NCBI RefSeq assembly: GCF_900232105.1
Contig: NZ_LT934425.1
Span: 1,890,001 to 1,922,000 of the forward strand
Direction of reading: 5' to 3'
Length of the DNA: 32,000 bases
From: Candidatus Kuenenia stuttgartensis
Lineage (GTDB): Bacteria > Planctomycetota > Brocadiia > Brocadiales > Brocadiaceae
A program made the translations under genes and the position numbers. Below are positions 2,258 to 31,253 of this stretch, piece by piece; the stretch's first letter is position 1, and each line of letters starts with the position of its first letter. The notes beneath the pieces were generated by a model. That model saw nothing but the letters and a program-made list of their open reading frames with translations. It searched no databases and had not been told where the DNA came from.

Positions 2258-2575
2258 TGAATATAGAGAAAAAGCCTCTGCTGCACAGTATAAATTGAGA
2301 AAACTAAGTAATTTGCCAAACTACCGGAGTGTAAAGCGAACCTGTTTCCAAACCTTGTGCTGAACATAGTGAAGTATCTGCTTGGGAAGGAAGCATATAT
2401 TGTTTTACGCTGAATAGTTACGTTTGCGGAGAAATATAGAAATCATTTGTTTAGATTAAATCAAAAAAATAATTTTTTACCATGCTGGAAGGGGCATTAA
2501 AACCGGTTCTGATTTTGTGGGGGGTTAAGTATTTTAGTCCAGACGATTTTACCTTTATTGAAAGGAGGCATCACT

Positions 2576-4225: not shown

Positions 4226-4303
4226 TTTCTTATAAAAGCCGGGAGTTATTTATTGGTCGGTTAATGTGGTTAGTATGATATTTATGGGTACTCATAAATA
4301 GAA

Positions 4304-4338
4304 GCAAAAAAGCCAGCTCTTTTTGCTGGCTTTTTTGC
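4304..4338 (+). terminator. Rho-independent (bidirectional-type) terminator after DUF11 paralog 1
   Basis: Perfect 14-bp stem, gcaaaaaagccagc (4304-4317) / gctggcttttttgc (4325-4338), with a 7-nt loop. An A-tract and a T-tract are built into the arms. Confidence 0.8.
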
Positions 4339-4386
4339 TTTCTATAAAATTGTTTAAATAGCATGCATTTAATGGAGATACTATAT

Positions 4387-6202: not shown

Positions 6203-6427
6203 CTCGCTACCAAGCTCTGCAGACGGGGTCAAAATTAACTTTGTTTGTCTCAAAAGTGGGGATGAACTACTATAAACCCCCGTTTTTACTCATATTTTAC
6301 CGTTTTTCATCAACAAAGTGGGGAGATTAGACCCATAAAACAAAGCAAAATTACCCATTTGGCCAAGTATGTCCGGTTTGGGAACGAGCGTTTTTACCTT
6401 TTCAAAAATCTAATCTGTTGCAAAAAT
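6203..6427. repeat. MITE-like repeat, degenerate copy (same family as 29339-29558)
   Basis: Colinear by eye with 29339-29558. Shared blocks are ...ccaagc...cagac.gggtcaaa.t.aactttgtt.gtctcaaaagtgggg... and ...tttgggaacgagc.ttttt....ttcaaaaatcta.ctgtt.caaaaa. Confidence 0.65.
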
Positions 6428-6541
6428 TCCAATAATAGCGATGTTTGCCGCGCAGTTTTTACACAGTCGCGCCATCTGCGCCTTAGTGGTTATGAAGCAC
6501 TTCGTTTGAAAAGAACCTATATAAGCACAGACGGAAAAGAT

Positions 6542-7177
6542 ATGAAAAGAAGCCATGCTCTTTATTCAGGCAGTCTTGCCTTACTAATCATTCTTGTGTT
6601 AATTGCAATAGTACCTGCTAATAGCATTGTGTCTGCGGCAATGGAGACTTATGCTATTAAATCAACGGGCAGTGTAGTTACGGCAATATTCCTTCGCAAT
6701 ACCCCGGAAAATGGCTTATCACCGGAAAAGATACAATCCGTATTGAAAGAAAAAGGACTATTTGATTCGCGAAGAAATCCTTTAGGAAAAGGAATTACCC
6801 ACGCGTATGAAATACAAAAAGCGGGAAAAGTTGTGCATGACCGGGTTGTTCATATTATATGGCAGCAATCCGGTTCACAAAAAAAAATGAATTACGCAGG
6901 GGCAAAACACTATATTTCTAAACTAAACAGTGACCAATTTGCGGGTTATAACGACTGGCGTTTGCCAACCACCGAGGAAGCCATGTCGCTAATGCAATCA
7001 GTAAAGAAAAAGTGCGGATTAAACATCGATGAGGTATTTGATCCCCTCCAGGAAAGAGCCTGGACTTCAGATATAAGAAAAGAAGGGACGGCATGGGTTG
7101 TCAGGTTTGATTCGGGATATTGCGACTACACCTATACAGATGCCAACATCAAATACCACGTTCGCGCCGTAAGGTAG
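6542..7177 (+). CDS. DUF1566 (Lcl C-terminal domain)-containing exported/membrane-anchored protein
   Basis: ATG at 6542 (MKRSHALYSGSLALLIILVLIAIVPANS, a signal/anchor). The signature is ...AGYNDWRLPTTEEAMSLM...AWTSD...AWVVRF.SG.......KYHVRAVR. The track's upstream extension (6359) reads through the MITE-like repeat and I reject it. Confidence 0.8.
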   Translation: MKRSHALYSGSLALLIILVLIAIVPANSIVSAAMETYAIKSTGSVVTAIFLRNTPENGLSPEKIQSVLKEKGLFDSRRNPLGKGITHAYEIQKAGKVVHDRVVHIIWQQSGSQKKMNYAGAKHYISKLNSDQFAGYNDWRLPTTEEAMSLMQSVKKKCGLNIDEVFDPLQERAWTSDIRKEGTAWVVRFDSGYCDYTYTDANIKYHVRAVR

Positions 7178-7541: not shown

Positions 7542-10292
7542 TTAGGCAGCTTTTTCACCATAAAGGCGGCGCGTGCATTTTTTTCTGTATTCATGTATGA
7601 GTGAAAGGGTGAAAGGCAGGACGAATATGGACGTCACAAGGCTGCATGAGAGGCTGATTGCGAGGATCAATCCAAGGCTTGAGACCCCCCGGTGTGAGGC
7701 TAACGCCAAAGACCCAAATCCTATTATGGTTGTGAGTGAAGATATGATGATAGCCTTTCCCGTGCTGGTTTGATGTATCCAAAGGCCTTCCTTTTCATTT
7801 AACCGCATCATGGTGTGGATGCTGTTATCAATGCTGATGCCCAGTATTAGTGGAAATGCGATTACATTTGCCGGGTTTGGCTGAATACGGAACAATTTCA
7901 TAAATCCGATTGTCCATAAAATCGTCAGAAGCAGGGGATAAAGGGTGGTCAGGGTAAGTATTATATTTCTATAGGTTAAGAGGAGGATCGAAAAAATAAT
8001 AGCCAGTGTGTAGCCTCCGGCGATCAAAAACCCCCGCTTGATTAATCTGTTTGTATCATAAATCTGAAATGGCGCACCAGTAGCTTCAGGCTGTATACTC
8101 CGTATTTCAGATACAAACTCGCCCAGTTTTCCTTCCGTCCAGATGTCTTCTTTGGGAAAGATATATACCATGTTTTTCCCCGTTTTCCCGACAAATCGTT
8201 CTTTCAGGCCGTAGGGCAAATCGTCTATGGTCATGGGTTCGGGAACCATTCCATGCTTCAGGTATTCAAGATGTTTGCGAATAGTCCGTTGTCCTTTGGA
8301 TAATCTTTCCACAATTTCTGCTTCCGGCAAAGTTTCTGCATTCCGCAAAAAGGTATCTATTTTGTTGTTAAGGATGAGGAGGCGGTCGGCAAGGGGACCG
8401 CTACCCTCTTTCAGCAGCCCCATATTTTTGCCGAAAGTGAGCCGGAATCGCAGCCGTTCAAGAATGGTTTTCAATTCCTGATATCGTATCGCATCGCCGG
8501 CATTCCCGGGAATGGGTATAGTTTGTGCGAGGGCTTTCAACTCTTTTATAATGCCCACCTTTTTTTCCTGCTCGTCGGGAAGCACCGAAGCAATGCTTTC
8601 TACCTTTCCCACGCTTTTGAGCCGCAGGAGCTGTTCGGACACCCTCTCCGCTTCTTCAGGAGTATCTGCGACAATCGCCCCAAACCATGTGGCAGTGCCG
8701 GTTGATTGAATAATTTTTATTGCGTATCGGGTCGATTCCAGGTTGGGTGGCAGGAGGTTCAGCAGATTGTCGTCAAATTTTATGTGCCTTACAAAGAAGC
8801 ATGAACCAATTGCAAACAATATGGAAACAATCGTCAGGGGGACTTTGCATGAAACTACTATACTGAACATCCAGTTTTTTACCGGTGTACATAATGAAGC
8901 CGCCGGAAACATTTTTTTCTCTGCAGTAATGAATTTGTCACATAAGATGATAAGCGAGGAAAGCAAAAACAGCGTGGAGATCAATGCGAGCAAAATGCCC
9001 GTTCCCGCGATTAGCCCTAGCTCGCTTAATCCTTTAAAATCGATTAACAGAGTGGAGTAAAACGATATTGCCGTGGTAACAGCGCCCAGGATGATGCCTT
9101 TTCCGGTATTTTCCATTGATTTACATAATGCGTCCCTTTTCTCATGACCGAGCTTCCTGCATTCTGTGTAACGTAACATGAGGTGGATGCTGAAATCTAT
9201 TCCCAGACCGATTAAAACAACGGCAAATACAATGGAAAAGAGATTTAAGTACCCTATTGCCAATGTTGTAAAGCCAAACGTCCAGCTTATCGAACACAAA
9301 AGGGTGAGCATGCCGAGTAACGGCATTACGATTGAATTGAACGAGATGATAAAGAGTATAGCAACTCCCACAAGTGCGGCAATGGAAATGTATAACATTT
9401 CTTTCTGAGAAATTTCCATTTCGTCGGCTTCCATAGCAACGGTTCCTGTAAGGCCGATATCGACTCCGGGACACATTTCTTTTGCTGCTGCAACTTGTTT
9501 TCTGATAAAACTGGTGGAATCCGTACCCGTCAACAATCCGTCAATATCATTAACCGTTATCTCCATCAAGAGAATGCGTCCGTTGTCAAAGAGATTATAA
9601 TATGCGGTATCCGGCGAATCGCCGAAAGCCATAGCAGCGGGGGAAAAAGGTATTCCGCCGTGAGCTTGCATCGCTGTTTGCAATGGAGATTCCGGCATGA
9701 CATTGTTTTCACGGAGGTTGTTATTCATGTCCTGAAGAAGGGCGATAAGCCTGTCGATGTCTTCCGTGATGTTGCTGTCGTCTGTTGTTTGTGCATGGGT
9801 TTTCTGCGTCAGTGAATGCTCAAATTGGGCGAAAATATCTTCGTATTGGTATGCTTGGGGTAGTTGCGCCCTGTTTTCCATGGTATGTAACAAATCTGTT
9901 TTTATTTTGAGAAGTTCTTCAACATCAAGATAAAAGAGCCCCTTTTTCTCAAAATCTGTTTTGTTCACTTTATAGAAAATGTTTTTAATAAGGCGTGGAC
10001 TGTTCTTTAGCCTTTTTGCAATTTGTTCCGCAGCGTTAATAAGAGCATCCGTATTATCTGATTCCATTACGATGATATGGTTATCAACCTGGCCAAATTC
10101 GTCCATTAGTTTCAGGAATCTTTTATTATATTCCTTTTCTTTCGAGATAAGGGAGTTTCGGTCAGGGTTAAATGTTAAATACTTCACCGTATAGAGCGAA
10201 GAAATGAGCGTAAGCAGGAGGGCAACGAATAATACTATTTTAGGACGGGAGCACGCAATGGCAGCGATTTTTCTGGCAATGATTTCAAACAC
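7542..10292 (-). CDS. hpnN: RND/MMPL-family hopanoid transporter HpnN-like
   Basis: 916 aa. Two 6-TM bundles each follow a large soluble loop. The RND TM4/TM10-type motifs are duplicated (LIGLGIDFSIH and ILGISIDNSIH). It lies adjacent to hpnK/I/J. Confidence 0.75.
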   Translation of the reverse strand: MFEIIARKIAAIACSRPKIVLFVALLLTLISSLYTVKYLTFNPDRNSLISKEKEYNKRFLKLMDEFGQVDNHIIVMESDNTDALINAAEQIAKRLKNSPRLIKNIFYKVNKTDFEKKGLFYLDVEELLKIKTDLLHTMENRAQLPQAYQYEDIFAQFEHSLTQKTHAQTTDDSNITEDIDRLIALLQDMNNNLRENNVMPESPLQTAMQAHGGIPFSPAAMAFGDSPDTAYYNLFDNGRILLMEITVNDIDGLLTGTDSTSFIRKQVAAAKEMCPGVDIGLTGTVAMEADEMEISQKEMLYISIAALVGVAILFIISFNSIVMPLLGMLTLLCSISWTFGFTTLAIGYLNLFSIVFAVVLIGLGIDFSIHLMLRYTECRKLGHEKRDALCKSMENTGKGIILGAVTTAISFYSTLLIDFKGLSELGLIAGTGILLALISTLFLLSSLIILCDKFITAEKKMFPAASLCTPVKNWMFSIVVSCKVPLTIVSILFAIGSCFFVRHIKFDDNLLNLLPPNLESTRYAIKIIQSTGTATWFGAIVADTPEEAERVSEQLLRLKSVGKVESIASVLPDEQEKKVGIIKELKALAQTIPIPGNAGDAIRYQELKTILERLRFRLTFGKNMGLLKEGSGPLADRLLILNNKIDTFLRNAETLPEAEIVERLSKGQRTIRKHLEYLKHGMVPEPMTIDDLPYGLKERFVGKTGKNMVYIFPKEDIWTEGKLGEFVSEIRSIQPEATGAPFQIYDTNRLIKRGFLIAGGYTLAIIFSILLLTYRNIILTLTTLYPLLLTILWTIGFMKLFRIQPNPANVIAFPLILGISIDNSIHTMMRLNEKEGLWIHQTSTGKAIIISSLTTIIGFGSLALASHRGVSSLGLILAISLSCSLVTSIFVLPFTLSLIHEYRKKCTRRLYGEKAA

Positions 10293-10718
10293 CTTGCAAT
10301 CTCCGTATCTTAACCATCAATGACGAAACAGCGCTTCCGATGTAGAACAACACTGCAGTGGACAAGTCAGTGCTTTGAAAAGAAGGTGCAGCAAAATAAA
10401 TTGAACTATTTTTATAGAAGGTGTTTAACATTTTTTTCTCTTTTTCAGTTAGTGCGGGAAATATTCAGTACAACATTTGTTTTATAAGGGCTATATTATT
10501 ACACAATGCCTTATCTATGAAATACCCATACAAATACGTATTGTATATTTCTACCCTATAATAATGAATAACTTCAACTTAAAAATGAGTAACAATGCCG
10601 TCTGCCCGAAATACATGCAGAATAACAACCGGTAATTTCTTTGCATTTTTTGGAAAAATATTTAATGGTGAATTCCGGATTTTTGTAACAATTTAGTTTT
10701 TTGAAAAATGTATTACCT

Positions 10719-10856
10719 ATAAGCTCCGCAGGAGCGACCTGTCTCTTGTAAATCCATATTAAACAGGTCTGCCGGAATACGTACAGGCCGCTCCTACGGA
10801 GCTATTTACTCTATTGAATTTTATTGTGCTACAAACAGACCGCCCCTAACGGGGCG
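10719..10856. repeat. Dispersed intergenic repeat: long imperfect hairpin plus a GC mini-hairpin
   Basis: The arm ataagctccgcaggagcgacctgt (10719-10742) pairs with acaggccgctcctacggagctat (10783-10805). cgcccc-taac-ggggcg lies at 10841-10856. The left arm recurs at 24622-24648. Confidence 0.7.
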
Positions 10857-11035
10857 ACATGGTATTTTTTCTATACCGTGAATTTTTTAAAAAGTTAAAA
10901 TGTTACGAATTTTTTATTTTTTGTCTGTTTGGTTCCGGCTTGTCCATTTTAGGGGGGCTGCCATAAAACACATATATATGAACTATTACAAAAATAATTG
11001 TAAGAGCAGGGTATTTATAGTATCTTTGTTCCGAT

Positions 11036-11857
11036 ATGAAAAAGTGCGTTATTAATGCCGATGATTTTGGAAAATCTGATGCCGTGAATGTATGCGTGGA
11101 AACAGCGTTCAGGGAAGGTGTTTTATCCAGTGCCAGCATAATGGCGGGGGGGCTGGCGTTTCCCGGAGCCTGCAGCATTATTAAGGGGAACCCCGGACTT
11201 GGCGTGGGCATTCATCTTACACTGCTCCAGGGGCATTCGGTGTTAAAGCATAAGGATATTCCCGGACTTGCGGATGTTAAGGGAAATTTTTGCGAAAACC
11301 CTTTCTTTGCAGGGATGAATCTTTTCTTTAAAAGGGGAATTGCGGATCAGATACGACGCGAAATCAGGGCTCAAACAGAAAAGGCTTTAGAGTCGGGAAT
11401 ATCTCTGGGGCATTTGGACGGTCACTTAAACATACATCTTCATCCATCGGTAATATGGCATGCAGTGGAATTATGCAAGGTATATAACATCCCCTATATC
11501 AGGATACCCCGTGAGCCTCTATTTATGAATTTGTTCGTATCGGGGAAGAAGTTGTTGTATAAAATAAGCCATAAAATTATTTTTGAAATACTCGCCCGCA
11601 GGGCAGCGCCGTTACTAAAGGAATACGGCATCGGACATATTCCCCTGGTAATAGGCCTTCTGGAATCGGGGAATATTACGGCTGATTACCTGAAGAAGAC
11701 CCTTCCGGGAATTGATAAGACGCCTTTTGAAATATATTGTCATCCGGAGCCAAATAATGCTGACTTCAGCGCACTTATGGATAAGGATGTAAAAAAATGT
11801 ATTGTGGAAAATGGTATCAGGATTATTACTTATAGAGAAATAAAGGTGCAACAATGA
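11036..11857 (+). CDS. hpnK: YdjC/ChbG-family deacetylase, hopanoid biosynthesis protein HpnK-like
   Basis: 273 aa. The N-terminus CVINADDFGKSDAVNVCVETAFREGVLSSASIMAGG...GVGIHLTL fits the YdjC pattern (DDFG...N.gi......G.l.s.s.m). Clustered with hpnI/hpnJ. Confidence 0.8.
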   Translation: MKKCVINADDFGKSDAVNVCVETAFREGVLSSASIMAGGLAFPGACSIIKGNPGLGVGIHLTLLQGHSVLKHKDIPGLADVKGNFCENPFFAGMNLFFKRGIADQIRREIRAQTEKALESGISLGHLDGHLNIHLHPSVIWHAVELCKVYNIPYIRIPREPLFMNLFVSGKKLLYKISHKIIFEILARRAAPLLKEYGIGHIPLVIGLLESGNITADYLKKTLPGIDKTPFEIYCHPEPNNADFSALMDKDVKKCIVENGIRIITYREIKVQQ

Positions 11858-12225
11858 TAAAAACGTTCGGGTTCCTGTTTTTCATGCTCATAGCGCAAGC
11901 CTTCGGGCACACCTTCTTGAGCAAAGGGATGGTTGGGATAGGAGAACTTACCGCATACAGTGTAAGGGAAATACTTTTTTACGCCCTGGTTGTCATGAGA
12001 AATCCATGGATCGTTTTCGGGATATTTTTTCATGCGATCGGATTTTTTTCATGGATGTATATTCTTTCTTTCTCGAAATTAAGCCTGGTGCTTCCACTGA
12101 CGTCTCTCTGTTATATAATGACCGCCTTTTTAGCTACATTCATGCTCGGAGAAGAGGTTAGCCCTCTCAGGTGGGCAGGGACCGCAGTGATAGTATTTGG
12201 CGTTTACCTTGTTACTCAGGGTTGA
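11854..12225 (+). CDS. Small 4-TM DMT/EamA-like membrane protein (ArnE/ArnF-size), translationally coupled to hpnK
   Basis: 123 aa. The ATGA overlap at 11854-11857 joins the hpnK stop to this start. An EamA half-domain-like ending is present (LPLTSLCYIMTAFLATFMLGEEVSPLRWAGTAVIVFGVYLV). Confidence 0.7.
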   Translation: MIKTFGFLFFMLIAQAFGHTFLSKGMVGIGELTAYSVREILFYALVVMRNPWIVFGIFFHAIGFFSWMYILSFSKLSLVLPLTSLCYIMTAFLATFMLGEEVSPLRWAGTAVIVFGVYLVTQG

Positions 12226-13345
12226 TTTGAGCAATCGTTCCGTCTTTGCCAAGGACAAATTTTTTATTTTTCCAGGTAATTTTGTTGCCGCAAAAACTCA
12301 ATAACCATGTATAAAATCCCAAAAATTCCTGTATAGGAACGAGCAAATACACCCATGAAAATGGAATCTTGCTCAGCAGGGTTCCTGTTAGGGTAATGCT
12401 AAGAAAACGCAGAATGATTGCCGTGCCAAAAAGAGAGATAGCGGGGAGAGAAAAAGAGGTAAAAAAACACAATAGCAGCGACCAGACAGAACCAAAAGAT
12501 ATGCCAAATAAAAAATATCCGACAGGTTCTGAGACCCTGTACGTCTTGCATAATCGTAATTGACGTACAAAATAATTCTTAAAATTCGATTTCCCGACAA
12601 CGGTATTTACCAGAATTGTTGAGAGCGTAACGGGATTTCCGTTTTTACTGATTTTGTTTCCGAGATGGTAATCATCCGCCAGCATATTGCCTAACGCTTC
12701 GTACCCGCCAATCGATTCCAGCGACTGTTTTGTAAGAAACATTGAAGCCCCAAAACCGTAATTTATCCCATGAAAAATTTTTGCCATACACACGCCCTGG
12801 AATATATCAGAGAGTATGGTGATAACCTCGAGGTGCCCCCCGATCCCTTCGTTGTGTATTCCCCGATACAAATTGGTGACCATGCCGGCGTTCTTTATGT
12901 GGGTCAACGATTGCAGGAAGTCCTGTGGTACTAATACATCGGCGTCGGAAATATTAATGATATCATACCGTGCATGTTCCGTAAGGGTAATGAGTTTCCC
13001 CACCTTTTCGTTTGAATATTTCTTATGGTTGCTGCACAGGATTATTTTGCAGATGCCGGGAAATTCATTTTCCAGCTTTGTTAAAATGCCATAGGCGGGA
13101 TCGTCTTTTGAACTGACACCAAACAGAATTTCTATGGGAATGGCTCTTAAATCAAGGAAGGATTTGATATTGTTGTATAAATTGTATACCTCGCCGGTAA
13201 TGGGTTTTAAAAAACTGATCCCCTCGAAATGAGGCATCTCTGTTTCCTCTCCCTTCTCTCTGAATACCGTCAAAGTACATAAAAACGCAGCAATATAATA
13301 GGTAAACGATAAGAATGTGAGTATGGAGAAGCAATATACGGCCAT
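12212..13345 (-). CDS. hpnI: GT2 (ceramide-glucosyltransferase-like) glycosyltransferase HpnI-like
   Basis: 377 aa with an N-terminal TM, then ISFLKPITGE, a DAD motif (NISDADVLVP) and C-terminal TM helices. Its 3' end overlaps the convergent DMT gene by 14 nt (12212-12225). Confidence 0.75.
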   Translation of the reverse strand: MAVYCFSILTFLSFTYYIAAFLCTLTVFREKGEETEMPHFEGISFLKPITGEVYNLYNNIKSFLDLRAIPIEILFGVSSKDDPAYGILTKLENEFPGICKIILCSNHKKYSNEKVGKLITLTEHARYDIINISDADVLVPQDFLQSLTHIKNAGMVTNLYRGIHNEGIGGHLEVITILSDIFQGVCMAKIFHGINYGFGASMFLTKQSLESIGGYEALGNMLADDYHLGNKISKNGNPVTLSTILVNTVVGKSNFKNYFVRQLRLCKTYRVSEPVGYFLFGISFGSVWSLLLCFFTSFSLPAISLFGTAIILRFLSITLTGTLLSKIPFSWVYLLVPIQEFLGFYTWLLSFCGNKITWKNKKFVLGKDGTIAQINPE

Positions 13346-13600
13346 GGTTGATTAACGATGCATCATTATAAGCAACAAAAGGATAAAATTACACACGACG
13401 GAGATCGTTTGCAATACGGAAGGTAAAATAATTACATTTTACAAGCACTTCCTGAACAACAATGTTTGGCAAAAACCTCTCCGGTTTCTAACTATTTGTT
13501 ATTATAGACCTTGCACGTGGTTGTATGTTTATTTTTGCAAAGTGTTGATAATACAAAAAAAAGATTGCAAATCAAATAAAAAAATGCGTTAATTTTAAAC

Positions 13601-15034
13601 ATGATGAAAAAGACACTTTTATTAAATCCACCCTGTTTCGACCAATTTGACGGCGGCGCCGGCTCCCGCTATCAGGCTCGCAGGGAAGTGCGTTCCTTCT
13701 GGTATCCCACGTGGTTGTGTTATACCGCGGGACTCATCCCTGGAAGCAAAGTAGTTGACGCACCGGCGCAAGGGCTGCAGATTGATGAGGTCGTTTCCCT
13801 TGCAGGGGACTATGAGCTGGTTGTGATGTACACAAATACCCCCACATTATCCATTGACAGAGAAACTGCCAAAAAGATAAAGGCTGCCAATCCGGAATCG
13901 GTCATTTGTTTTGTTGGTCCGCACGTTACTATACAGCCGGAAGATGCGTTGCGTGAGGACAGGATTGTGGACATTGTTGCAAGGGGGGAGTTCGACATTA
14001 CCGTTAAGGAACTTGCGGAAGGCAAAGCGTTGCAAGAGGTGAAAGGGATAAGTTACCTGAATGGTTCGGGCGTTGTTCATAATGCTGACCGTGGATTTAC
14101 TACCGATCTGGACTCCCTTCCCTTTGTTACGAAAATCTATGAGCGTGATTTGAACTATAAAGATTACGAAATCCCTTATTTGCGCTATCCGTACCTGTCG
14201 ATTTATTCCGGACGGGGTTGTCCCTCACAATGTATTTACTGTCTTTGGCCACAAACGATGATGGGACATCAGTATCGCGTAAGGAGCGTTGATAATGTTA
14301 TCAGGGAGCTGATGTATTGCAAGGAACGGTTTCCCGAAGTGAAAGAGATTTTTTTTGACGACGACACATTTACCGCAAACAGAAAAAGGGTGCAGGAGTT
14401 TAGCCGGAAGGTAAAGGACCTTGGAATTACATGGTCTGCCACATCAAGGGCAAACCTCGACCGCGAAACGTTACAACAGATGAAGGAAGGCGGCCTCAGA
14501 TTGCTCGTAGTAGGCTATGAATCCGGCAATGATGAAATTCTGAAAAACGTTAAAAAAGGGATTACGATTGATCAGGCCAAACGGTTTACCGGCGAATGTA
14601 AAAGTCTCGGCATACAAATTCATGGCACTTTTATGCTGGGATTGCCGGGGGAGAACAGGTCTTCAATGGAAGACACCATCCGATTTGCCATAGAGATGGA
14701 CCCTGACACGATGCAGGTATCTATAGCATCGCCTTATCCGGGCACTGAATTTTATGATTATTGCGAAAAGAACGGATACTTAAAGACCGGCACTATGTTA
14801 AGTTCTTCCGGACATCAGCTATGCAACATAGAGTATCCGGACCTCCCTGCAGAAGAAATCATCCTCTGGACGGAAAAATTCTATAAAAAATTCTACTTCA
14901 GACCACGCATTATTCTGAGAATAGTAAAAAAAATGCTTCAGGACCCCGTGGAACGGAAAAGAAGATTAAGGGAAGGGCGGCAGTTCTTCAAAACAATGCG
15001 CTCGCGCAGAAAATATACGAAAAAAAGCTGCTGA
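13601..15034 (+). CDS. hpnJ: B12-binding-domain radical SAM protein HpnJ-like
   Basis: 477 aa. The N-terminus LLNPPCFDQFDGGAGSRYQARREVRSFWYPTWL matches my memory of HpnJ. The radical SAM cluster motif is GRGCPSQCIYC (CxxxCxxC). Confidence 0.8.
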   Translation: MMKKTLLLNPPCFDQFDGGAGSRYQARREVRSFWYPTWLCYTAGLIPGSKVVDAPAQGLQIDEVVSLAGDYELVVMYTNTPTLSIDRETAKKIKAANPESVICFVGPHVTIQPEDALREDRIVDIVARGEFDITVKELAEGKALQEVKGISYLNGSGVVHNADRGFTTDLDSLPFVTKIYERDLNYKDYEIPYLRYPYLSIYSGRGCPSQCIYCLWPQTMMGHQYRVRSVDNVIRELMYCKERFPEVKEIFFDDDTFTANRKRVQEFSRKVKDLGITWSATSRANLDRETLQQMKEGGLRLLVVGYESGNDEILKNVKKGITIDQAKRFTGECKSLGIQIHGTFMLGLPGENRSSMEDTIRFAIEMDPDTMQVSIASPYPGTEFYDYCEKNGYLKTGTMLSSSGHQLCNIEYPDLPAEEIILWTEKFYKKFYFRPRIILRIVKKMLQDPVERKRRLREGRQFFKTMRSRRKYTKKSC

Positions 15035-24787: not shown

Positions 24788-26491
24788 TATAGTATTACCC
24801 TGTAAAAACTTCTTTTTTTGTAAGTTTTCCTTCGTGTTCTTTGTACTACTATCCATCAATTTCTTGTTTTTTATGCGTGTTTTTCATGCCGCCATTTCCG
24901 TAAGTGCTTTAATATCAAGGGCTGAAGCGGTCATCAGTGAACAAGAGAACTTCTGGCCTTTCTCCGTCAAAACATAGCGGTTGGCCCTCGGAACTTTGCG
25001 GATTAGACCGTGTGCCCGCAGCATCTTTATCCGTCGGGTCGTTCGTCCGGAATATTTCTTTTGCTGATCCTTGCCGGATTGTTCGGATTCCCGGTAAAGC
25101 CACTTACGCAAATCATGGTTGCGGAATCCATTTATCGCGTTTTCGCCTTTGGACAGGAACATCAGCATCTGGTAATCATCCTGCTGCCAGGGATTCAAAC
25201 CTCGATACCTCTTGCCCTCTTTGACAACCTTGTTACAAGCGCTGCTCACCACTTCTTTCAGTTTCTCCTCTACCTGAGCCGCCGCCAAAGCATCCCCATA
25301 ACGATCATTGCATTGTTGGCTCACCTCACACCGTCGATGAAGATCGCTTACGCCCTTACGCATCTTCTGCCATGACGCCGGTTTGCCTTCATCATCATTG
25401 GGACTCCGAAAGACCTTAAAGTCCCGCGTATTATTGATCGTTGTCTCAATACGCAAGAGACTACCGCTCTTGTTATACATCTTCACTGAATTATAATTCA
25501 CACTGTGCTTGACCCGTATACCTTCATAGCGTCTTCGATAGTCGCTGATAACCTCATCAGGGGCAGCGCCTGCAAGGTTACGCCTACCCAAATACTTCAT
25601 CACCGAAGAACTGTCGCAAACCCGCATCGCATGATGAACAAACGATGGAAACAACTCCTCCAATGCCTCAACCGATTTAAACATGATGTCCGTCGCCCAC
25701 TCCGTCTCATCCGCAGACCAGTAATACTCCGGTTCCAACGGACGAAGAATCTGCGACAATGCCGGGCAACTGCCCAACGCAAGCCCGTTCAGCAGCTTCG
25801 CCCAGTCAGTCTTAAGCTGCTCATGGAGCAGAACCTGCGCAGCCGCAATATCCTCTATACGCACAAAACAGTTGCCGTCCTTAACATAATCAATACCTTG
25901 CTTCTGAAGTTGCCGCTCCAGCCAATGACGACCATTGAGACAAATGAAAATATTAAACGGCGCCCAACTCTGGATACGAACATGACCAAAACCAAACACT
26001 GGATCGTTAAAATAATGATACACAAAGACACACTTGCGGGGCGCCATTACCAACTCGAGCTTCTTGCTGGCCTTGTTGCCCTTGACCATCGGCGCAATAC
26101 AAGGCTCTACCACACTCAACAGGCAGATGGAACCTTCCGTAATCCTCTTATCCGCCGCGATCTGGCGAGCCAACTTCTCCTTATCAACACCGCTGCTCAT
26201 CAAATACCGCACCTCGATACCCAAATCTTTCGCCCGCGATTCACAACTGTCTCGCACCTGTGCCGTAAGCCCATTGACCCAACCGGAAAAATCCTTAAGC
26301 AGAATTCTCGCTTGGTTCATGAATGTTCCCATCCCACGCTCACTGGCCAACCACCGCAATGTCCCGCGAAAACGAATCCTGTCCAGACCGCTTATTGCAC
26401 CCACGATCCTGTCTCGATATAATTCCATCAACTTATTCATAAGTAGTGTCCTCCAAATTGTCTGATTACTATTTACGAGGATACTACTATA
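24788..26491 (-). mobile_element. Tentative IS-like single-gene insert (about 1.7 kb) bounded by imperfect ~20-bp inverted repeats
   Basis: tatagtattaccctgtaaaa (24788-24807) compared with the reverse complement of 26471-26491, tatagtagtatcctcgtaaat (about 17/21 with one gap). Codon usage differs from the neighbouring genes. I found no target-site duplication. Confidence 0.3.
24884..26440 (-). CDS. Conserved-looking hypothetical protein (518 aa) with C-terminal winged-helix-like tail; possible novel transposase or mobile-element protein
   Basis: Long uninterrupted ORF. The C-terminus RTTRRIKMLRAHGLIRKVPRANRYVLTEKG is wHTH-like. I recognise no catalytic motif. Lys codons run AAG:AAA about 15:2 in the first ~290 codons, whereas neighbouring genes are AAA-dominant. 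Confidence 0.7.
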   Translation of the reverse strand: MNKLMELYRDRIVGAISGLDRIRFRGTLRWLASERGMGTFMNQARILLKDFSGWVNGLTAQVRDSCESRAKDLGIEVRYLMSSGVDKEKLARQIAADKRITEGSICLLSVVEPCIAPMVKGNKASKKLELVMAPRKCVFVYHYFNDPVFGFGHVRIQSWAPFNIFICLNGRHWLERQLQKQGIDYVKDGNCFVRIEDIAAAQVLLHEQLKTDWAKLLNGLALGSCPALSQILRPLEPEYYWSADETEWATDIMFKSVEALEELFPSFVHHAMRVCDSSSVMKYLGRRNLAGAAPDEVISDYRRRYEGIRVKHSVNYNSVKMYNKSGSLLRIETTINNTRDFKVFRSPNDDEGKPASWQKMRKGVSDLHRRCEVSQQCNDRYGDALAAAQVEEKLKEVVSSACNKVVKEGKRYRGLNPWQQDDYQMLMFLSKGENAINGFRNHDLRKWLYRESEQSGKDQQKKYSGRTTRRIKMLRAHGLIRKVPRANRYVLTEKGQKFSCSLMTASALDIKALTEMAA

Positions 26492-26647
26492 CTTTATAAT
26501 AAACTAAAAATCACCTTTTTGGTTGCGGCCAAAGGCCGCGCTAGGCCCTTTGTGGTTAAAGGACAGACGCACGGCCGGTGCGTCTCTACATTTTGGTTGC
26601 GGCTTTGCTGCGATATGAAATAAAATGCATGAAAAGAGGGAGTATGA

Positions 26648-27262
26648 TTGAAAGGTATTGAAAAACCGATTACACCTGAAGATACAGAAAATGGCAATCC
26701 GATGAAACAGCAGGGCGAGATGAAACATTCCGGGAAAAAGGGTACAGAACAAACCACCATTACAGAAATGCTTGCATCCCACAACGTTTTATTGGAAGAA
26801 GTGAAATCACTGATTGAAACCCGCCTGTCTTACGACGAAACAAAAGAAAAGACCATTGAGAAACTCCACGAAGAACTGAAACTCTATCGTGACAATTTCA
26901 TTTCCCAGTCGCAAAAACCTATTTTCATTGACCTGATTATGCTTTATGATGATTTCATGCAGGTACTCTCGGTTTTCGAAGAGAAGCAGGATATGACAAA
27001 GGATGATATTGCAGCAATGAGGCATAATATGCATACGATAAAGGAAGGGCTTCTGGAAATTCTGTATCGTAGAGAGGTAACACTGTATCACAAACATCCG
27101 GATTTTCTTGATTATAAACTTCACAAAACGATAGGTACGGTACCAACCAGCATAGAAAGCGAAAATAACCAGGTGGCGAAGATTGTAAAACCGGGTTTTT
27201 GCTGGAACGGCAAGACGCTAAGGCCTGAGGAAGTAATAATAAAGAAATATCGTAAAGAATGA
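26648..27262 (+). CDS. Divergent GrpE-like nucleotide exchange factor
   Basis: 204 aa. TTG start with AGAGGGAG 5 nt upstream; an alternative ATG lies at 26702. LHEELKLYRDNF...PIFIDLIMLYDDFMQVL fits the GrpE helical region. The ending VAKIVKPGFCWNGKTLRPEEVIIKK fits the GrpE beta-domain ending. Confidence 0.65.
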   Translation: MKGIEKPITPEDTENGNPMKQQGEMKHSGKKGTEQTTITEMLASHNVLLEEVKSLIETRLSYDETKEKTIEKLHEELKLYRDNFISQSQKPIFIDLIMLYDDFMQVLSVFEEKQDMTKDDIAAMRHNMHTIKEGLLEILYRREVTLYHKHPDFLDYKLHKTIGTVPTSIESENNQVAKIVKPGFCWNGKTLRPEEVIIKKYRKE

Positions 27263-27360
27263 TGCAGCGTACGGCACGCATCTTTGCCGGTGGAAAGTAC
27301 CCGTGTCGGTTTTTCTGAAAAACGATGCTCTGGAAAAAACAAAAACAGGAGAAGAGAACT

Positions 27361-28962
27361 ATGTCGCCTAAAAAAACAACCGTAGTGGGAATTGATCTGG
27401 GCACTACTTTTTCAGCCATTGCGCACATTAATGAGGACACCGGCAAAGCAGAGATTATTCCCAGTCCCGAACAAGACCGTATCACGCCTTCTGTGGTCCT
27501 TATTGAAAAGGTGAATGATATTATTGTAGGAGAAATAGCAAAACAGAATGCTGTAGCGGAACCAAACAAGGTCGTTGAGTTTGTAAAAAGACAAATGGGA
27601 AAACCAAAAGAAGATAAAAAGGATGAGCAGGGGAATATACTGGTAAAGGGCTGGTGTTTTGAGCATGAGGGGAAAAAGTACAGCGCCCAGGAAATTTCGG
27701 CGTTTATCCTGAAAAAACTGAAAAATGACGCCGAAGAGCGGCTGGGAACAATGATAACAGATGCGGTAATTACATGTCCGGCCTATTTTGGGGATCCCGA
27801 GAGGGCTGCAACCAAAGAGGCTGGCGTCATTGCGGGATTTAACGTGTTGGCGGTAATTGACGAACCGGTGGCCGCCGCGCTTTCTTATGGACTCGATAAA
27901 CTCAAACAGGATCAAAATGTCTTTGTCTTTGACCTTGGCGGTGGAACATTTGACGTGGTTATCCTTGAAATCAAAGGCGGAAAAATACGGGAGGTGGTGG
28001 TTAATGGCGACCACTTGCTTGGTGGCAAGGACTGGGATGATGAAATCATCCGGTATGCATCAAAGATTTTTAAGGAAAAATACGGAACATACCCGCTGGA
28101 TGATCTTTCAGCGTATCAGGATTTGCAATTACGCGCAATTAAGGCAAAAGAAGAACTCACAAAACGCGAAAAGACAAAGATTATGTGCGTGCACGCGGGA
28201 AATACCCTCCTGGTAGAATTGACCAGAGATACGTTTGAAGAAATTACAAAATATCTCATTGACCGTTGCAAGGTATTATGCGGAATAGCGCTGAGCGATG
28301 CAAACATGACGTGGCAAGACGTCGGGGCGGTTCTCCTGGTGGGCGGTTCTACAAGAATGCCCATGATAAGGAATATGATTGCAGAAATAAGCGGAAAAAC
28401 GCCCAGCGATGAACTAAACCCTGATGAATGCGTAGCCCTTGGCGCTGCCTGGCACGCCGCAATGTTAAGTATTTCCAGCGGCGATATGCCCGTTGAAGTG
28501 GTGAAGAGGCTCGCCGGAGTGGAAGTGCAAAAAGTCGCTTCACATAATCTGGGCATCATCGCATTGGACGGAGATGGGAATGAGCGGAATTTTCTAATGA
28601 TACCAAGGTTTACTCCCCTGCCGTTTGAAAAAAAGGATATTTTTAAAACACTCACCGACAACCAGACTTCCATTCTTCTGCGGATTATGGAAGGCGGAAT
28701 TATGGGAGAAAACGATACATGCGACCCCCTGGACTGCAATATGATCGCGCAAGGTTCGATACGGGATATCCCCCCTTCACCAAAAGGCAGCCCCATCGAG
28801 GTGGCCTATAAATACAATGATATTGGAATACTGGAGGTGCACGGTATTCATCTCCCATCAGGAAAAGAGGTAGTTATAACAGTGGAGCATACCGGCGGTC
28901 TGACTGCCCAGGAAATAAAAGCTGCAACTATGAACATTGAAAAAGCCTCAATAACAAGTTAA
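27361..28962 (+). CDS. Hsp70-family ATPase lacking the C-terminal helical lid (HscC-like size)
   Basis: ATG at 27361 with AGGAG upstream; 533 aa. Motifs: VVGIDLGTTFS, DAVITCPAYF, IDEPVAAALSYG, FDLGGGTFDV, GDHLLGGKDWD, LLVGGSTRMP, NPDECVALGAA. A beta-sandwich SBD follows and the protein ends there. Confidence 0.9.
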   Translation: MSPKKTTVVGIDLGTTFSAIAHINEDTGKAEIIPSPEQDRITPSVVLIEKVNDIIVGEIAKQNAVAEPNKVVEFVKRQMGKPKEDKKDEQGNILVKGWCFEHEGKKYSAQEISAFILKKLKNDAEERLGTMITDAVITCPAYFGDPERAATKEAGVIAGFNVLAVIDEPVAAALSYGLDKLKQDQNVFVFDLGGGTFDVVILEIKGGKIREVVVNGDHLLGGKDWDDEIIRYASKIFKEKYGTYPLDDLSAYQDLQLRAIKAKEELTKREKTKIMCVHAGNTLLVELTRDTFEEITKYLIDRCKVLCGIALSDANMTWQDVGAVLLVGGSTRMPMIRNMIAEISGKTPSDELNPDECVALGAAWHAAMLSISSGDMPVEVVKRLAGVEVQKVASHNLGIIALDGDGNERNFLMIPRFTPLPFEKKDIFKTLTDNQTSILLRIMEGGIMGENDTCDPLDCNMIAQGSIRDIPPSPKGSPIEVAYKYNDIGILEVHGIHLPSGKEVVITVEHTGGLTAQEIKAATMNIEKASITS

Positions 28963-29130
28963 CACCGATGCACCTAACTTCTCAATAAGTTGAGGTAGAC
29001 AACCCACTCGCTTCCTTTGTTAATGGTAAATTACGCAAGATTAACCCTGCGTTGGGTGCATTCCCGATTTTTTGTATATTTTCACATATTTTGTTTTTTT
29101 ACAAAGAATTGTAATACTTTAGTCCTATGA

Positions 29131-29558
29131 AAAAAACCGCTCGTTCCCAAGCTCCGGCTTGGGAACGGGATTGTTTGAGAAGCTCCAGCTTCGAATGGAA
29201 AAGGGAATGAACCCATTATGTTAGCTTGGAGGCTTTTCAGTATGTTACCCAAGATATTTGGAAACCTCTTTTGAATCGAATAATACACGAAGCTTCGCTT
29301 ACCGGCTAAATGGAAGCTAGAGCTTCCAACGCAATTACGTTCCCAAGCCGGACAGACTGGGTCAAATGAACTTTGTTGTCTCAAAAGTGGGGGCAACTCC
29401 TCGCATTATGCCTGTTTTAGACCCTATTTAGTGCTGTTTTACCATTAAAGTGGAGAATGCCTGTCGTAAAATAGGATAAAATTGTTCATTTGACCCAGTC
29501 TGCGGAGCTTGGGAACGAGCATTTTTGTTTTTCAAAAATCTAAACTGTTACAAAAAAT
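29131..29558. repeat. Nest of MITE-like repeats: core 178-bp element 29339-29516 with 33-bp terminal inverted repeats, plus an abutted-ends mini-palindrome at 29144-29167
   Basis: Left TIR gttcccaagccggacagactgggtcaaatgaac (29339-29371). The right TIR (29484-29516) has reverse complement gttcccaagctccgcagactgggtcaaatgaac, differing only in a 4-nt block. gttcccaagc-tccg-gcttgggaac lies at 29144-29167. The flank 29517-29558 is also shared with 6385-6427. Confidence 0.7.
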
Positions 29559-29648
29559 CAGGAATGCTCCTCCCTGCGTTTATGCGGTTGATTTCGTGGT
29601 TGTTTGTCCATTTAAAACAGAACTTTTCAACAAACAGAAAAACAAGCC

Positions 29649-31253
29649 ATGGCTACGTCGTTTGATCCTGATAAATATTTCCACAACAATGAATGGAAAA
29701 GCGCCATCGACCCTTCTAAAAACCACTATGAACGTTTGGGATTAAGGTTCGGCGAAAATTATTCCGCCCAAAATATAACAAAATCTTTTCAGCAAAGATA
29801 TGACTGGTGGCGCGAAGCGAACAAACGATACAACACAAACCCCGCCAACACGAAAACAAAAGAAACAGGGCCCGCCTCTGCCGAAGCAATGGGAAAACTG
29901 CAGGAGGCGTATGTAGTATTGACCAATCCTTCAAAAAAATCAGCATACGACAAACAACTCTCAACCGACAGCGGTAAAAAGGCAGGAGAAGAATTTAAAA
30001 AAATGATTCATATTGTTGCAAGCGACAACGCGCTCACGCAGGAGGGGAAAAAGATACTTCTTAATTACGCTGATACCCTGGGACTTAGCCAGGCAACAGC
30101 TTCCGATATGATAACAACAGAAACAGACAAGATGGGGGTGAGGCAACATCAACCATCTTCTCATTCAAGGCCAATTATTGTCGTCAGACAGTCCGGCACT
30201 TCTCAACAACCTGAGCTCCCAAACTATTATGCTCTTTTGGAAATAGACGCAACTGCCGGAGAGCATGAAATTCTGGAAGCATATAAAAGAAAAGTGTCTC
30301 TTTGGGAAAGCCTGAGTTCAAACCCAAAATTCAGGGACTTTGCCCTGCGAAGAATAGGTACCTTGCGGGAGGCCGTTGATATACTCCTCAATCATGACCG
30401 GCGAAGGAGATATGACTATGAATTATTTGGCAAAGGGAAAAAACCTGTCCGGAAAGCCTCGCAAGGAAAAAACAAAACCATAACGGCTGTCCTTGGCGGT
30501 GTAGCAATGGTAACTGTGGCGGCAATGATTGCCGTTGTTTTAAACAAGGGCAAGAATTTTCCTCCGGCAATAGTTGCCCCCGAGCCGTATATTTCCAAAA
30601 ACAAGGACATGCATGATGTTTTGGTGCAGGAAGATGTATCTCCATTTTATAAGGGGTGGCTGGGCGCAACAATCCAGGAGATTGACCCTGCACTGGCGGA
30701 GGCTTTTGGTGTTGACATTACAGAAGGAGTCATTGTGACGGAGGCACTGGGTAACTCTCCCGCGGAATCCGCAGGACTCCGGAGCGGTGATATCATTGTT
30801 GAGTTTGACGGGACGAAGTTGCGGCACGCAAATCACCTGAATTTCATGGTGGAACAAACAGGAGCAGGGAAGCATGTTGCGATGAGAATCATACGAGACC
30901 GCAAAGAAATGGAGCTAAATGTGATTCTTGGCGAACGACCAACTGTACTCTATTCTGCTACGTCACCGGAAACGATACCTCCCGAAAAGAACATTGGCAT
31001 AATGGTACAAAACGTATCCGAAAATGAAAACGGGGGTGAGGGGGTATTGGTTATTGATGTGCAACCGGAAAGCGCGGCTGCAAAATATAATATAGAAAAA
31101 GGTGATATCATTACGGAAATAAATAGAAATAAAATTTCAAATGTCGCTGAATTTATAAGGGCATTGATCTCTGCTGATGCCGATGAAAAAATACTCCTGC
31201 ATATAAAGAAAAGCGATATTTCGCTTTATCTTACCATCGATCCTGCGGAATAA
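29649..31253 (+). CDS. Membrane protein: two HPD-less J-like domains + TerB/DjlA-like segment (cytoplasmic), one TM helix, two HtrA-type PDZ domains (periplasmic)
   Basis: 534 aa. J-like 1: HYERLGL...ITKSFQQRY...KLQEAYVVLTNPSKKSAYDKQL, with NTNP where HPD is expected. J-like 2: NYYALLEID...ILEAYKRKV...LREAVDILLNHDRRRRYDYELF, with SSNP. TM helix TITAVLGGVAMVTVAAMIAVVL (aa 277-298) preceded by a K/R-rich stretch. PDZ1: GWLGATIQEIDPALAEAFGV...GVIVTEALGNSPAESAGLRSGDIIVEFDG. PDZ2: GVLVIDVQPESAAAKYNIEKGDIITEINRNKI. Confidence 0.8.
   Translation: MATSFDPDKYFHNNEWKSAIDPSKNHYERLGLRFGENYSAQNITKSFQQRYDWWREANKRYNTNPANTKTKETGPASAEAMGKLQEAYVVLTNPSKKSAYDKQLSTDSGKKAGEEFKKMIHIVASDNALTQEGKKILLNYADTLGLSQATASDMITTETDKMGVRQHQPSSHSRPIIVVRQSGTSQQPELPNYYALLEIDATAGEHEILEAYKRKVSLWESLSSNPKFRDFALRRIGTLREAVDILLNHDRRRRYDYELFGKGKKPVRKASQGKNKTITAVLGGVAMVTVAAMIAVVLNKGKNFPPAIVAPEPYISKNKDMHDVLVQEDVSPFYKGWLGATIQEIDPALAEAFGVDITEGVIVTEALGNSPAESAGLRSGDIIVEFDGTKLRHANHLNFMVEQTGAGKHVAMRIIRDRKEMELNVILGERPTVLYSATSPETIPPEKNIGIMVQNVSENENGGEGVLVIDVQPESAAAKYNIEKGDIITEINRNKISNVAEFIRALISADADEKILLHIKKSDISLYLTIDPAE

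Follow-up and report, generated by a model that had tools for sequence, protein, structure and literature searches.

Hsp70 chaperones are thought to depend on a lid and on a contact with a J domain, in which the aspartate of the His-Pro-Asp (HPD) motif pairs with R167 of DnaK. DnaK, HscA and HscC are the prokaryotic Hsp70 types recognised in reviews. A locus that departs from this scheme is considered here, namely three genes from the anammox bacterium Candidatus Kuenenia stuttgartensis encoding a divergent GrpE-like protein, a lidless Hsp70 and a third protein, hereafter the adaptor, that combines two J-like domains without HPD, a transmembrane (TM) helix and a pair of PDZ domains. The window analysed comprises 32,000 nucleotides of contig NZ_LT934425.1 (assembly GCF_900232105.1, positions 1,890,001-1,922,000), and all positions given below are window positions unless an L-number is attached; the L-numbers denote the homologous loci that were compared, with L001-L006 representing K. 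stuttgartiensis, L075 a sister Kuenenia species, and L090 Scalindua. The trio is read as a dedicated, non-canonical Hsp70 machine acting at the membrane, a reading to which, together with the mechanism proposed below, a probability of about 55% is attached.

The DnaK-DnaJ-GrpE system of E. coli resembles the trio in uniting an Hsp70 that has all catalytic residues with a GrpE-family protein and a J-fold partner. The Kuenenia Hsp70, however, has no lid and is changed at R167, in the VLLLD linker and in the salt bridges of the nucleotide-binding cleft, whereas its partner is devoid of the HPD motif, the glycine/phenylalanine region, the zinc finger and the client-binding C-terminal domains of DnaJ and is instead predicted to be anchored in the membrane with its PDZ domains outside. 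The trio also differs in having no controlling inverted repeat of chaperone expression (CIRCE) and in missing the equivalog cut-offs of the canonical proteins. E. coli DjlA shares with the adaptor a membrane tether, a cytoplasmic J-type domain and a collinear stretch of sequence; in contrast to the adaptor, it possesses an HPD motif in its only J domain, is anchored at its N-terminus and has no part outside the cytoplasm, and it partners the housekeeping DnaK rather than being encoded beside an Hsp70 and a GrpE of its own. On these grounds, the relation of the adaptor to DjlA appears to be one of resemblance, not of membership.

The original prediction had named E. coli HscC with DjlB/DjlC as the nearest characterised analogue. 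HscC is indeed a specialised Hsp70 paralogue with a presumed membrane function, encoded beside dedicated membrane-anchored J-type partners, but it retains a shortened lid and R167, bears a large deletion in the nucleotide-binding domain (DnaK 76-101) and has no GrpE partner. The Kuenenia Hsp70 is 36% identical to E. coli DnaK as against 30% to HscC, and the region of the second J-like domain is closest to DjlA, so that the analogy was not upheld; HscC as the nearest relative is ruled out by identity, R167, the lid and the GrpE features. The mitochondrial presequence translocase-associated motor (PAM), composed of mtHsp70, the J protein Pam18, the HPD-less J-like Pam16 and Mge1/GrpE, likewise places a membrane-tethered J/J-like pair, an Hsp70 and a GrpE-type exchange factor at a membrane surface. 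In PAM, however, one J domain is a true HPD domain, the Hsp70 is full-length and lidded, and there is a translocation channel, TIM23, whereas no channel partner is evident for the trio and both of its J-like domains are without HPD. The HtrA-family proteins DegP, DegQ and DegS offer a further comparison, with the predicted extracytoplasmic PDZ1-PDZ2 tandem of the adaptor aligning end to end with those of DegQ and DegP and with DegS being similarly anchored at its N-terminus and carrying a periplasmic sensor PDZ; the adaptor, however, has a TM helix and cytoplasmic J-like domains in place of the trypsin-like protease domain. Last to be considered are the GAP1-N2 GTPase systems, for which the available portion of Kaur et al. 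(2020, PMC7159879) describes an Hsp70 and a GrpE encoded with a DnaJ-fused fibronectin type III (FNIII) protein and sometimes with an extra protein bearing an Hsp70 nucleotide-binding domain. It is the GAP1-N2 GTPase that defines these systems, which are found chiefly in Actinobacteria and Firmicutes; the Kuenenia trio has no such GTPase beside it, and neither lid loss, HPD loss nor PDZ or formylglycine-generating enzyme (FGE) fusions are reported in that portion of the article.

No description of the cassette was found in a literature search that did not cover the survey of bacterial J proteins and Hsp70s by Barriot et al. (2020), in which a prior mention is possible, and within this scope the earlier statement that no system of such composition had been described holds. 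The same search returned nothing on a J domain combined with an FGE-sulfatase domain, or on Hsp70, GrpE, von Willebrand and J-domain proteins together. A large survey of J domains from 2023 dropped sequences that have no HPD or contain more than one J domain and would thus exclude these adaptors.

The GrpE-like gene (26648..27262), the Hsp70 gene (27361..28962) and the adaptor gene (29649..31253) are all encoded on the + strand, in open reading frames (ORFs) that agree with those predicted originally. The same order of GrpE-like gene, Hsp70 gene of 531-533 codons and J/PDZ gene recurs in Kuenenia species, in metagenome-assembled genomes (MAGs) of Brocadiaceae and in deep-lake Planctomycetota, and in an extended form in Scalindua. 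As it was found in every related locus with enough sequence, the arrangement is not one of chance. The genes flanking the trio are unrelated between loci of different anammox genera, while the short Hsp70 maintains 68-79% identity between these genera; in Kuenenia, the trio is surrounded by housekeeping genes, proC and transketolase being examples. The three genes thus form a dedicated unit across the anammox genera despite their differing flanks, as had been proposed in preference to a GrpE/Hsp70 pair beside an unrelated gene. The gap between the Hsp70 and adaptor genes amounts to 23-35 bp in L007, L009, L015, L016 and L075, to 333-368 bp in L008, L018 and L019, and to 676-686 bp in the strains of K. 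stuttgartiensis (686 bp in the window). No GTPase was encountered within 10 kb in the six K. stuttgartiensis loci, L008 or L009, the sole case being a dynamin-like GTPase on the opposite strand in L007.

The first gene encodes a GrpE-like nucleotide-exchange-factor homologue of 204 residues, which is matched to positions 13-165 of the 165-position Pfam GrpE profile (PF01025) and scores 54.4 bits there, the cut-off being 25.8. Its best score against the NCBIfam GrpE equivalogs was 25.3 bits, with cut-offs ranging from 137 to 348, and it is on this account regarded as divergent, in keeping with its first description. The TTG start codon is supported by L075, in which an ATG occupies the corresponding position. 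A motif in the C-terminal beta-domain, K[VT][LIF]RPEEV, marks the subfamily and is common to the 73 loci described below, and in every locus with enough sequence the short Hsp70 gene follows directly downstream. At E<=1e-10, 633 cluster representatives of this protein were retrieved among 1.84 billion.

The second protein, of 533 residues, was confirmed as a lidless Hsp70 with intact nucleotide-binding signatures and beta-sandwich by the concordance of Pfam, an alignment with DnaK and an AlphaFold2 model. (The longest ORF in this frame begins at 27325, upstream of the assigned start at 27361.) The Pfam HSP70 match of 422 bits covers only profile positions 1-516 of 599, and the similarity to E. 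coli DnaK can be aligned no further than about 20 residues into helix A. The model, with a predicted local distance difference test (pLDDT) score of 91.9 and a predicted TM-score (pTM) of 0.88, comprises the full nucleotide-binding domain as well as the beta-sandwich, after which a single 13-residue helix (516-528) stands where a lid would be expected; it resembles docked DnaK, matches DnaK in Foldseek at E=6e-59 and superposes on the engineered lid-truncated DnaK 7kzu with a TM-score of 0.84. Against the NCBIfam DnaK equivalogs NF001413 and TIGR02350, the protein scored 431 and 427 bits, with cut-offs of 648 and 822, respectively.

The ATPase site of the short Hsp70s is intact, given that K70, E171, D194 and T199 are kept in 73/73 sequences and D8 in 72/73 (the remainder being an alignment gap), and the normal hydrophobic peptide-binding pocket is also retained. 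R167, on the other hand, is replaced in 73/73, by Q in 56, by A in 10 (including Kuenenia), by S in four and by others, including G, H and M, in the rest. This loss is specific to the short Hsp70, since the Hsp70-vWA paralogues encoded upstream in some loci have R or K at this position in 10/11 cases. The interdomain linker reads VEVQK in Kuenenia in place of VLLLD and follows the pattern V-x-V-x-[DKN] in the family, being less hydrophobic than that of DnaK. There is no CIRCE operator in the window, and the trio is therefore probably outside the HrcA heat-shock regulon.

The adaptor is a protein of 534 residues with an identical intact product in all six K. stuttgartiensis loci, including the complete genome CP049055.1. 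It reaches 40.8 bits for Pfam DnaJ over the whole protein against a cut-off of 27.8, the best stretch being residues 192-256 within J-like domain 2 (J2; residues 188-262, 30210..30434, + strand), which covers profile positions 1-63 of 63. J-like domain 1 (J1; residues 1-110, 29649..29978, + strand) has a weaker Pfam DnaJ stretch at about residues 25-105 and a phmmer match to the J domain of E. coli DnaJ, but its hhalign match is weak and the evidence for it is weaker than that for J2. It does show the helix pattern of a J domain, with AlphaFold2 helices at 40-63, 74-92 and 94-123 in this region and an enlarged loop, NTNPANTKTK, at the place of HPD, and it is conserved in homologues from Acidobacteriota and Verrucomicrobiota. 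AlphaFold2 modelled residues 1-274 as an all-helical structure (pLDDT 80.6), and a fold search with this N-terminal model returned J domains for all of its top matches, with TM-scores of up to 0.83. Residues 168-188 and 267-274 are predicted to be disordered. The claim of two J-like segments with NTNP and SSNP in place of HPD is upheld by Pfam and by an alignment of 16 family members, across which the respective positions, YNTNPAN in J1 and LSSNPKF in J2, are conserved. Nor does HPD occur in a J-like domain of any of the 69 cassette adaptors or of the Scalindua and L091 versions.

Between the two J-like domains lies a helical motif (residues 111-165; 29979..30143, + strand) with the pattern ADG/LTxEGKxxLxxxAxxLGI, which occurs once or twice in homologous adaptors and is similar to DjlA's last TerB-like helix pair. 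By hhalign, residues 121-248 of the adaptor are collinear with DjlA 138-266 (probability 86.7%, E=4e-6), a stretch that takes in this helix pair together with the linker and J domain, while the NCBIfam DjlA match is weak. The segment had been called TerB/DjlA-like; the second half of this label stands by virtue of the collinearity, whereas membership of TerB was rejected, no TerB match having been found in the Pfam scan and the collinearity with DjlA being partial.

A K/R-rich juxtamembrane stretch and a single TM helix follow (30435..30542, + strand), the helix itself occupying residues 277-298 (30477-30542), and here the hydropathy analysis agrees with what had been predicted. The flanks of the helix carry charges of +5/0 on the N-terminal and +2/-1 on the C-terminal side, a distribution that agrees over 15 family members, and no signal peptide was found in the adaptor. 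By this flank-charge analysis, the adaptor is assigned as a single-pass protein of N-in/C-out topology, with the J-like domains predicted to be cytoplasmic and the PDZ pair outside. The original assignment of the PDZ pair to the periplasm is thus sustained as far as a location outside the cytoplasm is concerned, although in an anammox cell the lumen of the anammoxosome is an alternative. The PDZ1-PDZ2 tandem (about residues 333-530; 30645..31253, + strand) is of the HtrA type, as had been claimed: it is matched by Pfam PDZ, residues 329-529 align with DegQ 233-426 at E=2.5e-19 and likewise with DegP, and TIGR02037 is matched over profile positions 233-434 only. The carboxylate-binding loops, GWLG and NIGI, are intact. 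No match to Trypsin or Trypsin_2 was obtained, so the protease domain is absent, again as predicted. In the databases, the adaptor is labelled 'serine proteinase HtrA/DegQ/DegS', 'CbpA' or 'PDZ domain-containing protein'; judging from its domain content, the protease labels are misannotations. The analysis thereby corrects the annotation of the adaptor as an HtrA protease or CbpA and that of the Hsp70, named 'Hsp70 family protein' by the Prokaryotic Genome Annotation Pipeline (PGAP) and 'chaperone protein DnaK' in some records, as DnaK.

The anammox trio belongs to a wider family of cassettes. Scanning of species-representative genomes with the C-terminal motif of the GrpE-like protein yielded 73 loci from at least seven phyla, distributed among Brocadiaceae, Poribacteria, Chthoniobacterales and other Verrucomicrobiota, Acidobacteriota, Myxococcota, Latescibacterota and NPL-UPA2. 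The third gene in these loci is an adaptor with homologues of J1, the helical motif or J2 at its N-terminus, of which J1 and the helical module are homologous across phyla; a profile of these two retrieved 493 protein clusters, of which virtually none is named or has a Pfam domain. The C-termini, on the other hand, are FGE-sulfatase domains in 42/71, PDZ domains in 10/71 (in anammox bacteria only) and WD40 in 5/71, the remainder being PEGA/CarboxypepD_reg and others. TM segments are present in 25/69 adaptors and absent from 44/69, for which reason transmembrane coupling is not the common denominator of the family. The third gene being usually an FGE-sulfatase type and mostly soluble, the general principle appears to be a J-like adaptor with a variable binding domain and not a periplasmic relay. 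The original description of a membrane-tethered machine with periplasmic modules accordingly fits the layout of the anammox trio, but this is one branch of a multi-phylum cassette in which soluble adaptors prevail.

The commonest adaptor, in which the J-like module is joined to an FGE-sulfatase (formylglycine-generating-enzyme-like) domain, is usually soluble and is represented by L014 and L023-L087 from Poribacteria and Chthoniobacterales. These are lineages rich in sulfatases, and a possibility for the FGE-type cassette is that its dedicated Hsp70 might hold sulfatases unfolded for formylglycine modification. An additional gene upstream, encoding a fusion of Hsp70 with a von Willebrand factor A (vWA) domain, is present in 13 loci, including that of Scalindua; the product measures 665-755 residues (L011 3548-5638, L090 3326-5356, L091 3308-5350), and the further loci are L020, L044, L045, L047, L059, L071, L079, L081, L082 and L086. 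Kuenenia and Brocadia-type loci have lost this gene. Some genomes have two cassettes, as exemplified by L031 with L071 and L037 with L079. In Scalindua the adaptor is split, with J1 on an ORF of 124 residues (L090 7631-8005) and the rest on a protein of 1142 residues (8015-11443) that contains the helical motif, J2, several TM segments, PDZ and Lcl_C; the split could be real or a frameshift in the MAG. Defence-type genes neighbour the cassette in L013 (11843-15406: AbiTii, a TIR-domain protein and Nmad2), in L014 (192-3068: AAA_15/AAA_21 ATPases) and in L091 (1-1398 and 11557-12717: a DUF87/ResIII helicase and Fic), whereas the Kuenenia trio is not beside genes of this type.

As to the mechanism, the loss of both HPD and R167 suggests docking rather than classical ATPase stimulation, and canonical J-stimulation of the short Hsp70 is, from its residues, unlikely. 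The J-like domains would serve as a docking platform by which the lidless Hsp70 is tethered to the membrane adaptor, not as a canonical ATPase trigger, and the GrpE homologue would reset the nucleotide state of the Hsp70. With the lid absent, client exchange should be fast, and the Hsp70 may therefore cycle quickly at the membrane. On the far side (the periplasm, possibly the anammoxosome lumen), the PDZ tandem would capture exposed C-termini or unfolded segments, such that the adaptor could couple the recognition of extracytoplasmic polypeptides to the ATP-driven action of the Hsp70 in the cytoplasm. The target of this action might be the adaptor itself, membrane-spanning or translocating clients, or a sequestered regulator, and the outcome would be protein quality control or sensing in the envelope or organelle. 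Given that the far end of the adaptor is a DegQ-type PDZ tandem across the membrane, quality control or sensing of extracytoplasmic polypeptides seems the likeliest role. In the wider family, swaps of the C-terminal domain (FGE-sulfatase, PEGA, WD40, Lcl_C) would aim the same GrpE/Hsp70 core elsewhere.

Several observations weigh against this interpretation. The link between the J-like domains and the Hsp70 is drawn solely from gene neighbourhood and the matching losses, and the 44/69 adaptors devoid of a TM segment speak against transmembrane coupling as a feature common to the family. The salt bridges of the DnaK cleft, K55-E267 and R56-E264, are gone in the short Hsp70 (E267 being replaced by I/L/V and R56 by Q/N); according to a published rule, the absence of these bridges predicts fast intrinsic nucleotide release with little need for GrpE (PMC8215388), and the GrpE homologue may hence have a role other than nucleotide exchange. 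In the anammox genomes examined, no output component of the regulator or protease type is conserved beside the trio. The compartment faced by the PDZ domains, either the periplasm or the anammoxosome lumen, is uncertain. Finally, in K. stuttgartiensis a repeat with a terminator-like hairpin separates the Hsp70 gene from that of the adaptor, rendering their co-expression uncertain.

An alternative, judged unlikely, is that the cassette is a system for conflict, defence or surface recognition, in which an NTPase chaperone core of Hsp70, GrpE and sometimes Hsp70-vWA sets the threshold of a response and a variable ligand-sensing domain detects an invader or foreign molecule. Such a system would account for the pairing of a constant core with a highly variable C-terminal domain (FGE/C-type-lectin-like, Lcl_C, PEGA, WD40 or PDZ), for the patchy distribution over phyla with two cassettes in some genomes, for the Hsp70-vWA fusion in 13 loci and for the defence-type genes beside L013, L014 and L091, and the theme of Hsp70, GrpE and a DnaJ fusion is found in the GTPase-centred conflict systems treated by Kaur et al. 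(2020, PMC7159879). The conserved core, however, has no effector domain (nuclease, TIR, pore-former or protease), the GAP1-N2 GTPase is wanting beside the Kuenenia trio, and the trio looks vertically inherited in anammox bacteria, as judged by the identity of its Hsp70 between genera and the housekeeping surroundings of the Kuenenia copy. Moreover, none of the three proteins matched PADLOC-DB 2.0, apart from one 12.9-bit match at chance level, and an identity as an anti-phage defence system was rejected on this ground.

Rather improbable, too, is the notion that the lidless Hsp70 is a co-chaperone of the housekeeping DnaK, either in the manner of Hsp110, as an exchange factor acting between nucleotide-binding domains, or in that of the Ssz1-zuotin ribosome-associated complex (RAC), in which case its stable complex with the J-like adaptor would recruit DnaK to the membrane or regulate it there. 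A review from 2026 proposes such a role for truncated bacterial DnaK paralogues and recounts that, in eukaryotes, the lidless HspA14/Ssz1 forms a stable pair with a J protein; the linker of the Kuenenia Hsp70 departs from the hydrophobic VLLLD as does that of Hsp110, and the absence of HPD and R167 suits a contact between J protein and Hsp70 that is static, not catalytic. If the Hsp70 were itself an exchange factor, though, the dedicated GrpE homologue always found directly upstream would be hard to explain; all catalytic residues and the hydrophobic peptide pocket are retained, and no adaptor has, as zuotin does, an HPD J domain with which to stimulate DnaK.

It was also considered whether the adaptor is a client, with the GrpE/Hsp70 pair as its private folding or insertion system and the J-like region as the handle bound by the Hsp70. 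The strict one-to-one linkage of the genes, the predicted disorder of cytoplasmic residues 168-188 and 267-274, and the existence of client-specific Hsp70 systems such as HscA/HscB with IscU are compatible with this arrangement, but it is deemed very unlikely: the J fold is a known fold for binding the nucleotide-binding domain of Hsp70 and not a client motif, and the partners, which extend from soluble FGE fusions to multi-pass membrane proteins, are structurally unrelated beyond the J-like module. It is consequently improbable that all of them pose the same folding problem, and the simpler explanation is that they have a docking module in common. That the GrpE-like protein and the Hsp70 are the housekeeping GrpE and DnaK lying by chance beside an unrelated PDZ protein, as the name 'chaperone protein DnaK' in some records might imply, is essentially excluded, for every curated DnaK and GrpE equivalog cut-off is missed and the PGAP name goes no further than the Hsp70 family, the lid, R167 and a CIRCE operator are all lacking, the three-gene order is kept across genera and phyla with two copies in some genomes, derived DnaK paralogues occurred in a 2026 survey only in genomes with a bona fide DnaK, dnaK multigene families have been reported in Planctomycetales and Verrucomicrobiales since 1997, and Kuenenia proteomics mentions GrpE-DnaJ-DnaK whereas the trio has no gene annotated as DnaJ. 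The missed cut-offs, the PGAP name, the 2026 survey, the multigene families and the proteomics are also indirect evidence for a canonical dnaK-dnaJ-grpE set in Kuenenia.

A further possible reading is that of a fourth prokaryotic Hsp70 class beside DnaK, HscA and HscC, characterised by a lidless, R167-less Hsp70 with its own divergent GrpE and by HPD-less J-like adaptors that make a non-canonical contact. Through its membrane-spanning versions, the anammox PDZ form among them, the turnover of ATP in the cytoplasm would be coupled to a binding domain situated where there is no ATP, in the periplasm or the anammoxosome lumen. This is put forward tentatively, as a proposition that is more doubtful than probable. 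If true, the system would act either as a holdase/release device that is energised or as a transmembrane sensor based on a chaperone. The family is natural and widespread and is without lid, HPD and R167, yet its ATPase site and peptide pocket have been kept along with a GrpE of its own, and an alternative mode of Hsp70 control would be directly testable in it. The swappable domains of the adaptors suggest modular aiming of one chaperone core, including at targets across a membrane. The PDZ version, having been kept in anammox bacteria from Scalindua to Kuenenia, points to protein homeostasis of the envelope or anammoxosome. This is a poorly understood matter in these slow-growing organisms, which are used in wastewater treatment.

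The wide gap between the Hsp70 and adaptor genes in K. stuttgartiensis is filled by an insertion of about 650 bp directly after the Hsp70 stop codon (28965..29614, boundaries approximate, no strand assigned), recognised by comparison of the gaps and of the junction with L075 and by its inverted repeats and confined to this species. It consists of nested inverted repeats that have TTCCCAAGC...GCTTGGGAA as their core, of a family like the miniature inverted-repeat transposable elements (MITEs), and carries a strong terminator-like hairpin with a 13-bp stem at 29140-29169. Related partial copies are located at 6220-6429 and 10672-10708 in the window and at 12342-12791 in L001. Searched against Rfam, the 686-bp spacer with the sequence on either side yielded no match at E<=1.

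A second, strain-variable insertion of 1,700 bp (24845-26544) separates proC from the GrpE-like gene in the window, L003 and L004, while L001, L002, L005 and L006 display the empty site TTCTTTGT|GCCCTTTG. It has no terminal inverted repeats, has a GC hairpin at one end and looks like an unclassified mobile element. Its ORF of 518 residues (24884-26440, minus strand) has no Pfam, PHROG or PADLOC family and shows a weak winged-helix match at the C-terminus; as it resides on an insertion absent from 4/6 K. stuttgartiensis loci, it was rejected as a member of the system. The best sigma70-like promoter match of the region (26472-26500) falls within the end of this insertion and is directed towards the GrpE-like gene. 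Elsewhere in the window, two tandem paralogous surface-type proteins with DUF11/CARDB repeats (555 and 538 residues, 2558-5979) are followed by an Lcl_C-domain protein of 272 residues (6359-7177), the same type of domain as that which ends the Scalindua adaptor. An envelope- and lipid-related group at 7542-15034 comprises an MMPL-family transporter of 916 residues, a YdjC-like protein, a family-21 glycosyltransferase and a B12-binding radical SAM enzyme.

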